From positions 1-46,089 of the forward strand of contig JBBQRQ010000034.1 in assembly GCA_038214755.1 (NCBI GenBank): DNA of 46,089 nt. The letters are read 5' to 3'. Source of the stretch: Verrucomicrobiota bacterium (GTDB lineage Bacteria > Verrucomicrobiota > Verrucomicrobiia > Limisphaerales > CANJXF01). The position numbers and the translations under genes are program-made. The stretch's first letter is position 1; the number at the start of each line of letters is the position of its first letter. This document shows, one piece after another, positions 514 through 24,862 of the stretch. The notes below the pieces were generated by a model, which saw only the letters and a list, made by a program, of their open reading frames with translations, made no database searches and was not told the DNA's origin.

Positions 514-1419
514 GAAACCATCGAACCAAACGCGCCCATCGCGGTGATCGAGACTGCAACGAAAGGAATTTCCCTTTGGCGAGCGGCGTGGCGGCGTCTG
601 CTGAAAAATAAAATGGCGGTGTTTGGAATGATCGTGGTGACGATTCTTTTTTTCGCGTGTTTCGTCGGCTACGAAATCGCGCGCGCCAAAGGTTTCAGTC
701 ACGAAGCGCAAAATCTCGCCAGCGGTGCAACACCCCCGAGCGCGCAACATTGGCTCGGCACCGATCCGCTCGGACGGGACATGGTCGGGCGCGTTTTGTT
801 TGGCGGACGGATTTCTCTCATGGTCGGCGGAGTGGCGACGCTGACCTCGCTCGTCATTGGAGTGCTTTATGGCGCGATCTCCGGATTCGTTGGGGGCAAA
901 ACGGATTTAATTTTGATGCGGCTGGTGGATATTCTTTACGCATTGCCGTTCACCATTTTCGTCATCCTGCTCATGGTTGTGTTTGGCCGAAACCTGCTTC
1001 TCATTTTCATCGCCATTGGCGCGGTGGAATGGCTGACGATGGCGCGAATCGTTCGCGGACAAGTGTTGGCGTTGCGGCACCAGGAATTTATTGAAGCGGC
1101 CTTCGTGCTGGGCGCGCGCAAACGCCGCGTCATTCTGCGTCACATCATTCCCAACATTCTCGGCCCGGTGATTGTCTATGCGACGCTGACCGTTCCCGCC
1201 GTCATGCTTTTGGAAGCGTTCATCAGCTTTCTCGGTCTCGGCGTGCAAGCTCCCGATACGTCGTGGGGCGTGCTGATCAAGGAAGGCGCGGATGCGATGG
1301 AGGAATATTCGTGGCTCCTGATTTTTCCGGCGTCAGCTTTGGCGTTGACGCTTTTCTCGCTGAACTTTTTAGGCGACGGCTTGCGCGATGCGCTGGATGT
1401 GCGGAGTGGGAAAAGATGA
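508..1419 (+). CDS. oppC: Oligopeptide ABC permease OppC/DppC
   Basis: HWLGTDPLGRD, GGRISLMVG, EFIEAA.VLG (EAA loop), LNFLGDGLRDALD. Confidence 0.95.
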   Translation: MTETIEPNAPIAVIETATKGISLWRAAWRRLLKNKMAVFGMIVVTILFFACFVGYEIARAKGFSHEAQNLASGATPPSAQHWLGTDPLGRDMVGRVLFGGRISLMVGGVATLTSLVIGVLYGAISGFVGGKTDLILMRLVDILYALPFTIFVILLMVVFGRNLLLIFIAIGAVEWLTMARIVRGQVLALRHQEFIEAAFVLGARKRRVILRHIIPNILGPVIVYATLTVPAVMLLEAFISFLGLGVQAPDTSWGVLIKEGADAMEEYSWLLIFPASALALTLFSLNFLGDGLRDALDVRSGKR

Positions 1420-5992: not shown

Positions 5993-6269
5993 GGGCGCAT
6001 CTCAGTTTCGTGCAATCATCCTTTCGTCCCGGAGGGACGTTTGACAATAGCCCGGTGTTTCCAACGCCGGGTGGGCGTTCCGGGGTGAGAAGTCCCGAAG
6101 GGACGACTGAGTGGAGAATTGACCTCGCTGGCAATGCTTTTTCGATCCGTCCCTGCGGGACTCATTCTGTTTTTCACCACGACCCGGCGTTGAAACGCCG
6201 GGCTATTCTCGATTGTCCCTCCGGGACAAAAAACGGATTTGCTCCCGTGCAAGAAACTGAGATGCGCCC
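5993..6269. mobile_element. MITE: IS-type terminal inverted repeats enclosing a tri-hairpin REPIN-like dyad
   Basis: TIR GGGCGCATCTCAGTTTC(G/T)TGCA, 21/22 match; flanks GGTTGACT/TGTTGACT (7/8 direct repeat); internal inverted arms 6025-6228 begin with GTCCC-GGA-GGGAC. Confidence 0.85.
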
Positions 6270-12252: not shown

Positions 12253-12327
12253 TGGAGCCAGTTTTCGGGATCGAACCGAAGACCGACGGTTTACAAAACC
12301 GTTGCTCTACCACTGAGCTAAACTGGC
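12253..12327 (-). tRNA. tRNA-Thr(TGT)
   Basis: Reverse complement GCCAGTTTAGCTCAGTGGTAGAGCAACGGTTTTGTAAACCGTCGGTCTTCGGTTCGATCCCGAAAACTGGCTCCA: cloverleaf, TGT anticodon, encoded CCA. Confidence 0.97.
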
Positions 12328-18574: not shown

Positions 18575-18864
18575 CCTTGGCATTCCCCACAATTGGTTGC
18601 CGATTTTTCAATCCCAAAGGGATTGCATCTTTCAGCCCAGGGTTGCGAGGCACGAGCTACCCTGGGTGAACTCCACCAAGGGGATCAACCCTGAAGGGGT
18701 TGCAGCAGACCAATTTTAGGCGCGGAAAGAGATGCAACCCCGTTGGGGTTGAAAGAATTCTTTACGTCATCCCAACGTAGCTCGTGCCTCGCAACCCTGG
18801 GCTAAGTGATCCCAATCCTTTCAGGATTGAAGAAACACACGTTGAGATATGGGTAATGACAAGG
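18575..18864. mobile_element. MITE with IS-type TIRs carrying a tri-hairpin REPIN-like dyad, inserted into a GGGTAGC REP arm
   Basis: TIR CCTTG(G/T)CATT(C/A)CCCA, 13/15 match; CCGGAG duplicated (18568-18573 and 18865-18870); removing the insert restores CGCACCCGCCGGAGGCGAATGCTACCC. Confidence 0.85.
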
Positions 18865-19994: not shown

Positions 19995-20010
19995 TGGTAT
20001 CGGCGCTGTT
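19995..20010 (+). promoter_or_regulatory. Degenerate sigma54 -24/-12 site for pilin 1
   Basis: TGGTATCGGCGCTGTT, positionally equivalent to the better site at 20646; has GT instead of GC at -12. Confidence 0.45.
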
Positions 20011-20023
20011 TAACCCGTATATC

Positions 20024-20095
20024 GCGGTTGGTTCCAGGCAATACGTGAACAAACTTAGTAATAATATAAACCGCCTGGCGCCGAGTTCACGCCGC
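20024..20095 (+). ncRNA. Candidate structured (pseudoknotted) 5' leader, copy 1
   Basis: GCGG/CCGC, CCAGGC/GCCTGG and CGTGAAC/GTTCACG pairings in interleaved order; near-identical copy 651 bp downstream. Confidence 0.55.
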
Positions 20096-20118
20096 ACAAA
20101 AGGAAAGTAAGAAATAAC

Positions 20119-20487
20119 ATGCAAACAAAAACAAATCGCAACTCAGCGTTCACCCTCGTAGAAATCATGATCGTCGTCGCGATCATCGGTCTTTTGGCCG
20201 CTATCGCGATTCCAAACTTCATTCGCGCTCGCGCTAAATCGCAACAGAACGCCTGCATCAACAACCTTCGCCAATATGACGGAGCTTTGCAGCAACTCGC
20301 TCTGGAAAACAGGCTCGCCTCCAGTGCGACCTACACGATGGCTGACTTGAAACCCTACATCAAATTGAATTCCACGAACGGCCTTCCCGGTTGCCCTGCA
20401 GGGGGAAATTATATTGCCGGTGCAACGATTACTAATGCGCCTACCTGCGACAAAGCCGCCGCGCCTGACTATCACACCGCCCCATAA
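20119..20487 (+). CDS. Type IV pilin-like prepilin 1
   Basis: Short basic leader, then A|FTLVEIMIVVAIIGLLAAIAIPNF; C...CP.GG.Y...C...H pattern. Confidence 0.92.
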   Translation: MQTKTNRNSAFTLVEIMIVVAIIGLLAAIAIPNFIRARAKSQQNACINNLRQYDGALQQLALENRLASSATYTMADLKPYIKLNSTNGLPGCPAGGNYIAGATITNAPTCDKAAAPDYHTAP

Positions 20488-20514
20488 GTAAATTGTTTAG
20501 TTCTAATCCAACAG

Positions 20515-20552
20515 AGGCCCGAAAGAGAAATCTTTCGGGCCTTTCCCTTTTT
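20515..20552 (+). terminator. Intrinsic terminator after pilin 1
   Basis: AGGCCCGAAAGA-gaaa-TCTTTCGGGCCT followed by a T-rich tail. Confidence 0.85.
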
Positions 20553-20645
20553 CGTGATTTGGGGGCGAGAGAATCGTTCCTATTTTTTCCCGGGGTTACT
20601 CCGGTGGCAACAAACAGTGCTCTAATTCATCGATGGAAGCGTATC

Positions 20646-20661
20646 TGGCATCAGTGCTGCT
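20646..20661 (+). promoter_or_regulatory. sigma54 -24/-12 promoter for pilin 2
   Basis: TGGCATCAGTGCTGCT (GG-N10-GC). Confidence 0.7.
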
Positions 20662-20674
20662 TAGCCAATATATC

Positions 20675-20746
20675 GCGGATGGTTCCAGGCAATACGTGAA
20701 CAAACTTAGTAATAATATAAACCGCCTGGCGCCAGGTTCACGCCGC
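20675..20746 (+). ncRNA. Candidate structured (pseudoknotted) 5' leader, copy 2
   Basis: Same three pairings as copy 1; the 3 differences fall in predicted unpaired linkers. Confidence 0.55.
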
Positions 20747-20769
20747 ACAAACAGAAAGTAAAAAATAAC

Positions 20770-21138
20770 ATGCAAACAAAAACAAATCGTAAGTCGGGTT
20801 TCACCCTCGTAGAAATCATGATCGTCGTCGCTATCATCGGTCTTTTGGCCGCTATCGCGATTCCGAACTTCATTCGCGCTCGCGCTAAATCGCAACAGAA
20901 CGCCTGCATCAACAACCTTCGCCAATATGACGGAGCTTTGCAGCAGTTCGCTCTGGAAAACAAGCTGGCTTCCACTTCCACCTACACCACGAATGACCTG
21001 GCGCCCTACATCAAGTTGACCACAGCCGGCGGCCTCCCTGCCTGCCCTGCAGGCGGAACTTATACGGCTGGTGCGACGATCACCAATGCTCCTACATGCA
21101 ACAAATCAGCTTCGCCTGATTATCACGTGGCCCCATAA
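20770..21138 (+). CDS. Type IV pilin-like prepilin 2
   Basis: G|FTLVEIMIVVAIIGLLAAIAIPNF; N-half nearly identical to pilin 1, C-half diverged. Confidence 0.92.
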   Translation: MQTKTNRKSGFTLVEIMIVVAIIGLLAAIAIPNFIRARAKSQQNACINNLRQYDGALQQFALENKLASTSTYTTNDLAPYIKLTTAGGLPACPAGGTYTAGATITNAPTCNKSASPDYHVAP

Positions 21139-21156
21139 GTTGATTTTGGAATCAAG

Positions 21157-21192
21157 AAAGGCCCGAAAGAATCTTTCGGGCCTTTCCCTTTT
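21157..21192 (+). terminator. Intrinsic terminator after pilin 2
   Basis: AAAGGCCCGAAAG-aat-CTTTCGGGCCTTT followed by CCCTTTT. Confidence 0.85.
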
Positions 21193-21268: not shown

Positions 21269-21284
21269 TGGCACTTAGGTTGCT
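21269..21284 (+). promoter_or_regulatory. sigma54 -24/-12 promoter for pilin 3
   Basis: TGGCACTTAGGTTGCT matches the consensus TGGCAC-N5-TTGCW exactly. Confidence 0.8.
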
Positions 21285-21343: not shown

Positions 21344-21709
21344 ATGAACACAAAAACAAACACAACATCTGGTTTTACGCTGGTGGAGATTATGATCGTG
21401 GTAGCCATCATTGGCCTGCTTGCTGCCATTGCCATCCCGAACTTCGTTCGCGCTCGCGCCAAATCGCAACAGAAAGCCTGCATCAATAACCTCCGACAAA
21501 TTGATGGCGCGATTGCGCAGTGGGCGTTGGAATACAAAAAAGTCTCAGCGGATGCCGTCACACTCAATGATTGCAAGCCTTTCATGAAACTCACCACCGC
21601 TGGAGAAATTCCGACTTGCCCGGCCCTGGGCACTTACGCAGTGACCATCGTGTCAAATCTAGCGACTTGCACTCTTTCTGTCGCTCCTGACTATCACGTG
21701 TCCGACTAG
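21344..21709 (+). CDS. Type IV pilin-like prepilin 3
   Basis: G|FTLVEIMIVVAIIGLLAAIAIPNF...KACINNLRQ...CPALG.Y...TC...PDYH. Confidence 0.92.
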   Translation: MNTKTNTTSGFTLVEIMIVVAIIGLLAAIAIPNFVRARAKSQQKACINNLRQIDGAIAQWALEYKKVSADAVTLNDCKPFMKLTTAGEIPTCPALGTYAVTIVSNLATCTLSVAPDYHVSD

Positions 21710-21845: not shown

Positions 21846-22589
21846 GTGAGCGCGATTCTTGAAATCAAAAACCTCCGGGTCGAATATCGGAGCCGCGAAG
21901 CCGGCCAGGGCCTTAAAATTGCCGTTAACGATTTGAACCTGAGCGTTCAAGCCGGAGAAGTTTTCGGGTTCCTCGGACCCAACGGCGCGGGCAAAACGAC
22001 GACCATGAATGTTTTGCTCGGCTTCGTGAACGCCACGAGCGGCACCGCTTCCATTTTCGGCGTCGATGTCCGGCAACCCATCGCGCGCCAGCGAATTGGT
22101 TATCTTCCCGAACTGACCTACTACTACAAATTTCTGAACGCGGAAGAGCTACTGCGATTCTACGCCCGAATTTTTAAAATCCCACCGGCGCAGCGTGAGT
22201 CGCGCATCGACGCCGTTTTGAAATTAGTCGAATTGGAATCAGCTCGAAAAAGGCTGATTAAAACATATTCAAAAGGAATGCAGCAGCGGGTGGGACTGGC
22301 CCAGGCGCTCATCAATGATCCCGATCTGCTCATTCTCGACGAGCCGACCAGCGGCCTGGACCCCATCGGTCGCATGAAAGTCCGTGAGATTATTCAGCGC
22401 CTGAAAAACGAAGGAAAAACCGTTTTCTTTTCCTCGCACGAACTCGGTGAGGTGGAAACGGTGTGTGATCGCGTGGCCATCCTCAATGACGGACAGCTCA
22501 AAGTGGAAGGTCGCGTCGGCGATTTGGTTCAAGAATACCAGTGCAACCTCGAACAAATCTTTTTGAAAATTATCGGGCACCAAGTGTAG
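21846..22589 (+). CDS. ABC transporter ATP-binding protein (PilH/XapD-like by context)
   Basis: GPNGAGKTT, YSKGMQQR, LILDEPTSGLD, SSH. Confidence 0.92.
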   Translation: MSAILEIKNLRVEYRSREAGQGLKIAVNDLNLSVQAGEVFGFLGPNGAGKTTTMNVLLGFVNATSGTASIFGVDVRQPIARQRIGYLPELTYYYKFLNAEELLRFYARIFKIPPAQRESRIDAVLKLVELESARKRLIKTYSKGMQQRVGLAQALINDPDLLILDEPTSGLDPIGRMKVREIIQRLKNEGKTVFFSSHELGEVETVCDRVAILNDGQLKVEGRVGDLVQEYQCNLEQIFLKIIGHQV

Positions 22590-22764
22590 CGGCAGTGCAT
22601 CCTGCCTGCCGTAGAGCCGTGGCGTCTCGCCCGGCGGATTGAACAAACCATGCGAAAATTTATGAACTATCTGACAGTGAAAAACGCATCTTCTCAGTCC
22701 GGACGACGAGAATCCGGGCGGCGAGACGCGCGCCCTCTACGTCAGGCGAGACGCCCGACGCTAC
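22586..22764. repeat. GTAG-type REP dyad; its GTAG supplies the ABC gene's TAG stop
   Basis: GTAGCGGCAGTGCATCCTGCCTGCCGTAGAG...CCCGGCGGA / TCCGGGCGGC...CTCTACGTCAGGCGAGACGCCCGACGCTAC. Confidence 0.8.
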
Positions 22765-22786
22765 TTAAATTACGGCTTGACTCACT

Positions 22787-23563
22787 ATGAACAACGCCCT
22801 TGCTGTCGCTGGAATCGTCATCAAGGAGATGTATCGCCGGAAAGATTTTTACGTTTTATTCATCCTCACCGCTCTCATCACCATGGTGATGGGATCCTTC
22901 AAATTTTTTCACGACGACAAAATTGTTCGTTACCTCAAAGAAATTTGTTTATTGCTGATTTGGATTTCTTCATTAGTCGTCGCCATCACCACCGGCGCCC
23001 GGCAACTGCCCGCTGAAAAAGAATTTCGCACTATTTTTCCGCTCCTGGCCAAACCGATCACGCGCGGCCAATTGATCCTCGGAAAGTTTTTCGGCTGCTG
23101 GCTCGCGTGCGGATTGGCCTTGGTCCTTTTCTATCTTTTTTTCGGAATCATCAGCGGCGCGCACGAACATCAGTGGCCAGTCCTGAATTATTTTCAGGCG
23201 CTTTGGTTGCATTGGATTTTTCTGGCTGTCGTGCTGGCATTGGTGCTTTTAGGCTCGGTCGTTTTTACCGCCGTGTCTTCCAACGCGACCATTAGTTTTA
23301 TCATCATCGCCGGAATTTTGTTCGTAGGGCGCCACCTCAATCAAGTCGCGCTGCATCTCTCCGAGCCTGCTCAATCGATTGTTTACGCGATCTATTTTGC
23401 CATCCCGCATCTGGAATTTTACGACGTGCGTGACTTGATCATCCACAACCTGCCCTTGATTCGTTGGAGCGTGTTCGGGCTGGCGACGCTTTATGGAATG
23501 GCCTACGCCGTTTTTTTTCTCTACGCGACCTGGCTGATTTTCCGGAGAAAAAGCTTGAACTGA
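22787..23563 (+). CDS. ABC-2 type permease (PilI-like by context)
   Basis: Six-TM pattern; LPAEKEFRTIFPLLAKPITRGQLILGKFFG. Confidence 0.88.
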   Translation: MNNALAVAGIVIKEMYRRKDFYVLFILTALITMVMGSFKFFHDDKIVRYLKEICLLLIWISSLVVAITTGARQLPAEKEFRTIFPLLAKPITRGQLILGKFFGCWLACGLALVLFYLFFGIISGAHEHQWPVLNYFQALWLHWIFLAVVLALVLLGSVVFTAVSSNATISFIIIAGILFVGRHLNQVALHLSEPAQSIVYAIYFAIPHLEFYDVRDLIIHNLPLIRWSVFGLATLYGMAYAVFFLYATWLIFRRKSLN

Positions 23564-23564
23564 T

Positions 23565-24530
23565 ATGGATACGAAATCCGAAGGCCGCTATCCGAAATCC
23601 GAAGACGGAAGAACCTGGATTTCGGGACTTCGGAGTTCGGATTTAGCGATGTGCTCACCCTTACTCGTTTTGTCTTTGCTGTTCGCCCTTTGCTTGAGCT
23701 TCGGCTCAACCCTTGAACCGTGGCGCCAAAACTGGAGTGGCGGTCGGAATAAATCGGCCAACGTGTTGAATGTTTTGATCGGCGACAGCCGCGCCCTGTT
23801 CGCGAACCATTTTTTTGCCCGAGCCGACGCCTATTTTCACAGCGGATATTACCCGAGCATCTTCGACACGCGAAAGACCGAGGAGCCATCGCACATGATC
23901 AATGGCGCAGGAGAAGAAGGTCGCGAGGAAGAACATCACGACGAAAACGAAAACGGTTTTCTCGCAGCGCCCAAAGATTGGATTGATCGCTTTGGCAGAA
24001 ACTTTTTCCCATCGCACCACAGCCATTTGGAAAAAAATGGCGATGAGCGGGAAATTCTGCCCTGGCTGCGATTGTCGGCGGAGTTGGATCCGCAGCGAGT
24101 AGAGACATACACCATTGCTTCATATTGGCTGCGCAGCCGTTTGGGAAAAGTTGATGAGGCCGAACAATTTTTGCGCGAGGGATTGCGGGCCAATCCCGAC
24201 AGCTACGAAATTTATTTTGAACTGGGCCGCATCTACGACGAGAACCGGCGCGATGCAAAAATGGCGCGCAATCTTTGGGAAGTCGCCTTGCGAAAATGGG
24301 AAGCGCAGTTGCGAAAATCCGAAGCGGAAAATAATCCTGCCGGAAAACCCAATGACTTGGTTTATGAAGGCATTGTCGCGCGGCTGGCGAAGCTGGAAGA
24401 GGCGCAGGAGAATTTTCCGCAAGCGCTCCGTTATCTGAAATTGCTCAAAGAGAAATCGCCAGCCGCGGCCCAGATTCAGAAACAAATCGACGAACTGGAG
24501 CAGAAAGTTAAAGGCCATTCGGCGCCATAA
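23565..24530 (+). CDS. Membrane-anchored TPR protein with His/Glu-rich insert (true start may be ATG 23649)
   Basis: N-terminal TM; ADAYFHSG; LDPQ.VETY...A.YWL...EAEQFLREGLRANPDSYEIYFELG (TPR). Confidence 0.8.
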   Translation: MDTKSEGRYPKSEDGRTWISGLRSSDLAMCSPLLVLSLLFALCLSFGSTLEPWRQNWSGGRNKSANVLNVLIGDSRALFANHFFARADAYFHSGYYPSIFDTRKTEEPSHMINGAGEEGREEEHHDENENGFLAAPKDWIDRFGRNFFPSHHSHLEKNGDEREILPWLRLSAELDPQRVETYTIASYWLRSRLGKVDEAEQFLREGLRANPDSYEIYFELGRIYDENRRDAKMARNLWEVALRKWEAQLRKSEAENNPAGKPNDLVYEGIVARLAKLEEAQENFPQALRYLKLLKEKSPAAAQIQKQIDELEQKVKGHSAP

Positions 24531-24785: not shown

Positions 24786-24862
24786 CGGGACGTAGCGTAG
24801 CTTGGTAGCGCGTCTGAATGGGGTTCAGAAGGTCGTGAGTTCAAATCTCACCGTCCCGACCA
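24786..24862 (+). tRNA. tRNA-Pro(GGG)
   Basis: CGGGACGTAGCGTAGCTTGGTAGCGCG-TCTGA-ATGGGGT-TCAGA-AGGTCGTGAGTTCAAATCTCACCGTCCCGACCA. Confidence 0.95.

Follow-up and report, generated by a model that had tools for sequence, protein, structure and literature searches.

The window analyzed here, a stretch of 46,089 nucleotides from a bacterium of the Verrucomicrobiota order Limisphaerales, carries a tandem array of three short genes for type IV pilins, each with its own sigma54-type box (Table 1). The first two pilins are preceded by nearly identical leaders, and the question raised by this locus is whether these leaders form an RNA structure that acts on the pilin messages or owe their likeness to duplication of the DNA. 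The original prediction had drawn three helices in them, interleaved as a pseudoknot. As judged by sequence comparison across genomes, a conserved three-helix pseudoknotted leader RNA that is tied to the sigma54-type pilin genes of this one order is well supported, and its most probable role appears to be that of a protective structure at the 5' end of the message.

Table 1. Features of the pilin locus, in positions of the window; putative start sites follow from the usual sigma54 spacing between box and start site.
Feature	Position	Strand	Remarks
Sigma54-type −24/−12 box, pilin 1	19995..20009	+	GT replaces GC at −12; putative start site ~20021
Pseudoknot leader RNA, copy 1	20024..20095	+	Covariance model 86.6 bits
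Copy 1, P1	20024-20027/20092-20095	+	
Copy 1, P2	20029-20039/20073-20083	+	
Copy 1, AAU	20040-20042	+	
Copy 1, P3	20044-20050/20085-20091	+	
Copy 1, AU-rich linker	20051-20072	+	22 nt
A-rich unstructured spacer	20096..20118	+	Includes ribosome-binding region
Type IV pilin 1	20119..20487	+	122 aa; N-methylation motif
Intrinsic-terminator-like hairpin and U run	20514..20552	+	3' of pilin 1
Sigma54-type box, pilin 2	20646..20660	+	Putative start site ~20672
Pseudoknot leader RNA, copy 2	20675..20746	+	Covariance model 84.3 bits
Copy 2, P1	20675-20678/20743-20746	+	
Copy 2, P2	20680-20690/20724-20734	+	
Copy 2, P3	20695-20701/20736-20742	+	
Type IV pilin 2	20770..21138	+	122 aa
Intrinsic-terminator-like hairpin	21156..21192	+	3' of pilin 2; 15-nt perfect arms
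Sigma54-type box, pilin 3	21269..21283	+	Leader without RNA motif
Type IV pilin 3	21344..21709	+	121 aa; without motif

The two leader copies are 72 nt long each, are offset by 651 nt, and differ at three positions (20028, 20083, and 20084). The duplication, the length and AU-richness of the linker, and the distance of 23 nt between the end of each leader and its ATG (20119 and 20770) are as had been predicted, and so is the absence of the leader from pilin 3: a search of the whole genome found only the two copies. P2 pairs as drawn in the original prediction but is longer, comprising 10 pairs and one U–C mismatch, so that position 20083 falls inside the helix—as U–G in one copy and U–A in the other—and the claim that all three differences lie outside the helices does not hold. 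The identity of the two window copies is no evidence by itself since the duplication of pilins 1 and 2 continues into the coding region, with 93% identity over 300 nt.

The genome that contains the window encodes RpoN and, on several contigs, 82 proteins whose N terminus bears a pilin-type motif, most of them 230–290 aa long, as well as at least five full-length PilB-like and at least five PilT-like ATPases; the pilin family linked to the leader motif is represented there only by the three short pilins of the window. An ABC ATPase, an ABC-2 permease, and a TPR protein follow 3' of the pilins (window 21846–24530, plus strand), and the same ATPase and permease likewise lie 3' of the pilin at locus L440. 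Pilin-linked ABC modules exist in Myxococcus and Geobacter, and the genes of the window resemble these. Elsewhere, the window contains an Acido-Lenti-1 RNA (6183–6228, plus strand; 44.5 bits, exceeding the Rfam gathering score), REP-like intergenic inverted repeats with arms of 44–51 nt (18616–18821 and 22597–22755), and two tRNA genes (12256–12327, minus strand, and 24786–24859, plus strand).

A DNA search of 40 relatives showed that the similarity extends into the leader in many families and yielded 31 leaders from 30 loci; 30 of these leaders served to train a covariance model (L027, which was misaligned, was left out). This model matches 111 of the 151 genomes and 75 of the 98 genera sampled of the order, and none of 150 other genomes of the phylum, with 30 candidates scored per genome. 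Outside the order but within the class, approximately 130 genomes gave four weak matches (E 0.003–0.034), which come with neither a pilin nor a sigma54 box and were treated as chance; one of them, at L448 (683–753, minus strand), keeps P3 and a short P2 and is probably chance as well. A pattern scan of GTDB contigs matched at least 125 stretches, and viral contigs gave no match to the pattern. Among the matches listed, 73 of 80 pattern loci fit the covariance model; 61 of these 73 are recorded as Verrucomicrobia or Limisphaerales—the naming of the lineage rests on these—and the remaining 12, not so recorded, have the same pilin type. Homologous pilins of other classes show no motif at 29 loci (best E 0.48). 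They keep the sigma54 box, and their leaders are unrelated, 10 of 28 being more stable than shuffles (z < −1.5).

Nested folding of the single copies is unremarkable compared with shuffles (z −0.82 and −0.41), and the structural support therefore comes from covariation across genomes. In a structure-blind alignment of the 31 leaders, 93.3% of the cells are paired and 13 of 20 pairs show changes on both sides; none of 500 shuffles scores as high, and slid registers reach 36–45%. When 101 distinct sequences were aligned by fitting them to the model, pairing in P1 and P2 came to 96.9%, a value that leans to the model. Joint changes were counted by branch on a tree of 229 pilin coding sequences, which allows for kinship; 3 of 264 instances had been dropped before the column profile, and 32 of the remaining 261 had too little coding sequence for the tree. 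All nine pairs of P2 lie above the null (p 0.001–0.036), with up to 42 compensatory events versus 9.8 expected. Three pairs of P3 (6 versus 0.5, 5 versus 0.3, and 3 versus 0.0 events) and one of P1 (4 versus 0.1) do so too, and the other pairs of these two helices say little because they hardly vary. Each of the 13 column pairs with the strongest covariation belongs to a helix or extends P3 by one pair; the tree-based analysis brought out no tertiary contact by covariation. G–U combinations outnumber A–C combinations by 210 to 41, which marks the plus strand as the RNA. P2 consists of 9–10 continuous standard pairs with 90–100% pairing per column. When metagenomes were scanned separately with a pattern, all 82 of 82 matches linked to a pilin could form P3 versus 20 of 42 others, and the 5' strand of P1—unselected by the pattern—is present in 76 of the 82. 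The predicted three-helix pseudoknot is thus conserved across genomes of the order and covaries on the pilin tree, with P2, P3, and one pair of P1 backed by compensatory changes. A competing GGUU/AACC pairing, which had been proposed alongside it, found no such backing: it shows no significant joint changes and reads C–A at one pair in 52 of 229 sequences. Pairings of GCGG with CCGC in the linker, of AAU with the linker, and of G37 show no significant joint changes either, several of these candidates being too invariant to test.

The family combines invariant and free parts. Among unpaired residues, the AAU after P2 is conserved at 96–99% and the linker residues G37, U41, U44, and A49 at 96–98%. 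Over the 218 parsed instances—the set also used for the ribosome-site analyses—pairwise identity amounts to 91–96% in P1 and P3, in the upper P2, and in AAU, the values for P1, P3, and AAU, like the 96–99% above, being inflated because part of the set was picked by a pattern holding these words; it is 88% in the linker core, 29–36% at free positions, and 0.54 in lower P2, which varies freely. Divergent copies (L301, L309, L313, and L452) have altered sequences in P1 and P3 and keep the pairing. L296 and L298 of family f115 keep P1 and P2, have lost P3, and carry a new small hairpin in the loop; AAU is absent from L307, L310, L313, and L315; and in L452 and L455 the linker is short and lacks the conserved core.

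The gene context is uniform. The 264 distinct matches in 265 loci are followed directly by a pilin in 246 cases and lie at contig ends in 10, and hand inspection of the other 8 revealed one false match, one masked pilin, two variant pilins, three short ORFs before a pilin, and one pilin-like start with a different ORF. A conserved 107-aa ORF lies between motif and pilin at two loci of one genus, L437 (3820–3497, minus strand) and L438 (1069–1392, plus strand). At L439 (~650–1372, plus strand), motif and pilin-like start continue into a different 187-aa ORF with acidic repeats, which suggests that the pilin leader was reused for another ORF. A sigma54-type box lies 5' of 221 of 262 leaders (4% in shuffles), and P1 begins 12–14 nt past the −12 C in 146 of the 221, closer in 2, and 15–25 nt past it in 73. 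With start sites placed by the usual sigma54 spacing, P1 of the main group would begin at about +2 to +4, which agrees with the expectation that the leader starts near the beginning of a sigma54 transcript. On the 3' side, the median distance to the AUG is 22 nt; the spacers contain 53% A across the family and GAAAG in 158 of 218. Helices, strand, link to pilins, and position behind the sigma54 box can in this way be read from the compared genomes.

For the function of this RNA, we favor—with slightly less than even confidence—a compact 5'-terminal fold that shields the pilin mRNA from RNase E/G. A lineage-wide cis-acting domain would make up the extreme 5' end of the message for the main pilin, with P1 tying the first transcript nucleotides to the end of the domain. 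P2 bears a loop of approximately 35 nt, the first part of which pairs back as P3. The partner strand of P3 lies just before P1, so that P3 can stack on this short helix and clamp it. Helix grooves are the probable docking sites of those unpaired residues that are conserved (AAU, G..U..AU, and UAA), which, together with P3, would brace P1 with its 4–5 bp. The fold would thereby block 5'-end-dependent decay by RNase E/G and leave translation initiation open, allowing for a high output of the major pilin. Start site, stacking and docking, and the protective function are what we infer; the helices beneath them rest on the covariation. According to the accessible part of PMC3997798, RppH and RNase E require single-stranded 5' ends, and 5' structure stabilizes mRNA for this reason. 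In the available portion of PMC9943677, pseudoknots hinder the scanning of RNase E, and stem-loops orthogonal to its path are bypassed.

Several observations fit such a clamp. The ribosome region is mostly open, with an unpaired fraction of 0.70 when the element is free; no terminator lies between leader and AUG, a U5 run being absent from 218 of 218 instances; RNase E/G family members occur in all 61 genomes of the order examined; and, as described above, some copies lose P3, AAU, or the linker core. The decay route is an assumption because an RppH orthologue was not found in the genome of the window and RNase J was found in none of the 61 genomes. With the entire domain closed by P1, the fold could protect only if it conceals the 5' end, which depends on the placement of the putative start site, and the 73 copies whose P1 starts late would have longer free 5' ends. 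Pilin 3 has a sigma54 box yet lacks the motif, and the 3' half of the element, when freed, shows a somewhat stronger pairing with the ribosome region of its own copy than shuffles show. The identity found in P1 and P3, in the upper P2, in AAU, and in the linker core exceeds what a clamp needs, as a simple hairpin would protect. Such conservation resembles that of riboswitch aptamers and keeps a riboswitch or a protein site among the candidates.

The next in plausibility, although unlikely, is a riboswitch aptamer for a metabolite, an ion, or a nucleotide signal that switches pilin synthesis on. A ligand at the junction of P1, P2, and P3 might lock the fold; in its absence, the domain might open, and either the 5' end and the AU-rich linker would be exposed to RNase E/G or the 3' half would cover the ribosome site. 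The pseudoknot with its highly conserved paired and unpaired residues and the single consistent gene class speak for it, and the shortness of P1 and the modest nested subfolds (−7 to −12 kcal/mol) are what a fold that depends on a ligand should show. With the 5' strands blocked, the openness of the ribosome region falls from 0.70 to 0.59, but this drop is close to the value of a shuffled element (0.65), and removal of the element gives 0.77. Pairing of the 3' half with its own ribosome region amounts to −9.1 kcal/mol—compared with −7.5 for shuffled elements and −8.3 with the regions of other copies—and beats shuffles in 67% of the 218 instances, which is a weak hint at a switch by such predicted pairing with no clear platform for it. 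The lack of a terminator, the lack of covariation in the alternative GGUU/AACC pairing, the short and variable junction strands (2–3 nt and 1 nt), the loss of AAU, linker core, or P3 in some copies, and the confinement to one order speak against a riboswitch. In its favor, the genome of the window encodes a c-di-AMP cyclase, and a class II c-di-GMP riboswitch controls the type IV pilin operon of C. difficile, as stated in the accessible part of PMC11477304. GGDEF domains are absent from the genome of the window, which is 97% complete, and were detected in 39 of the 151 genomes sampled from the order, mostly as one copy, and in 27 of 111 carriers of the leader; the other 84 carriers argue against c-di-GMP and GGDEF-made cGAMP, both of which had been considered at the outset, and c-di-GMP is an unlikely ligand. 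With rather low probability, the leader would represent a new riboswitch class for a signal other than c-di-GMP that gates pilin through ligand-dependent protection of 5' end and linker from RNase E/G and not through a terminator or ribosome-site switch.

Third in plausibility, and doubtful, is a site bound by a protein that might read the conserved face of P1 and P3 and the AU-rich linker; this protein could be a regulator specific to the lineage, a feedback factor of pilus assembly, or ribosomal protein S1 as an enhancer of translation. That P1, P3, and the upper part of P2 conserve the bases of their pairs alongside a variable lower P2 would suit such a reader, as would the AU-rich linker and the A-rich spacer, and the narrow range could match one protein family; however, the genes beside the pilins (ABC ATPase, permease, and TPR protein) offer no candidate, and CsrA was not found in the genome of the window. 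The absence of any RNA function, with the likeness due to gene conversion, to a duplication of recent date, or to a site beside the promoter that works at the DNA level, draws on the shared coding identity of the window copies and the adjacency of the element to the promoter but is largely refuted and very improbable given the occurrence throughout the genomes and genera of the order, the many independent compensatory changes, the G–U excess, and the pilin-linked pairing of P3 in metagenomes, and with it falls the caveat that duplication or gene conversion alone could explain the identity.

Whether it acts as the favored 5'-terminal clamp or otherwise, the leader apparently represents an undescribed family of pseudoknotted leader RNAs of one Verrucomicrobia order. 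As had been anticipated from its mismatch to the consensus structures of c-di-GMP-I/II and cGAMP riboswitches, a scan against Rfam 15 left it unmatched both at the gathering threshold and up to an E value of 10, and the motif at 8 further loci is unmatched up to an E value of 5. No description was found in the literature consulted, which includes the main texts of PMC11109978 and PMC8632094 and one supplement of the latter; the supplements of PMC5737381 and PMC11109978 may hold the motif. The system offers an uncatalogued fold with more than 250 natural variants and one class of target genes; its sequence is short and simple to make, which lends itself to probing, crystallization, and reporters. 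Should the leader prove to be a riboswitch, it would point to a signal that controls pili in a lineage that is widespread and mostly without c-di-GMP enzymes, and its ligand would reveal a signal for surface attachment in Verrucomicrobia that abound in soil and sediment.

By context and by strand order, the c-di-GMP-II riboswitch is the nearest known element. In it, the loop of a long hairpin folds back to pair with a strand just 5' of the closing P1. The leader shares with it the location in front of a pilin, the pseudoknot of loop and 3' strand, and this overall order of strands. According to the accessible part of PMC9495366, the c-di-GMP-II riboswitch contains a kink-turn as well as a pseudoknot; the leader has the pseudoknot and no kink-turn, its P2 being continuous, and the reach is supplied by a linker of 22–24 nt. 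It also has neither an Rfam match nor a terminator platform, and most of its hosts have no detected GGDEF domain, and membership in this class was rejected on kink-turn, Rfam, and cyclase. The c-di-GMP-I and 3'3'-cGAMP riboswitches (GEMM) were rejected as well, with no Rfam match and a pseudoknot built on one hairpin in place of a Y-shaped three-helix fold. In viral exoribonuclease-resistant RNAs, a short P1 near the 5' end is braced by a pseudoknot. The short 5'-proximal P1 of the leader recalls these, but the 3' strand of its pseudoknot precedes the 3' strand of P1, the 5' exonuclease RNase J was not found in the 61 genomes of the order searched, and no Rfam match links the two. Stem-loops that stabilize mRNA at the 5' terminus—the leader of E. 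coli ompA is an example—are simple hairpins with little sequence conservation. With those treated in the accessible part of PMC3997798, the leader has in common a structure where a highly expressed mRNA would begin, hosts with RNase E/G, and an open ribosome site behind it. The obstacles to RNase E in the available portion of PMC9943677, together with riboswitches that act on decay, are likewise compact pseudoknots of the 5' UTR upstream of protectable sites; the leader has no known ligand and differs from the coaxial H-type knots described there in that its P1 closes the domain and both ends exit together. From the 5'-terminal stem-loops it differs as a three-helix pseudoknot with unpaired residues conserved order-wide, and, if it acts as a constitutive clamp, it would be a natural, sequence-conserved pseudoknot stabilizer of bacterial mRNA, useful for studies of decay and for expression design.
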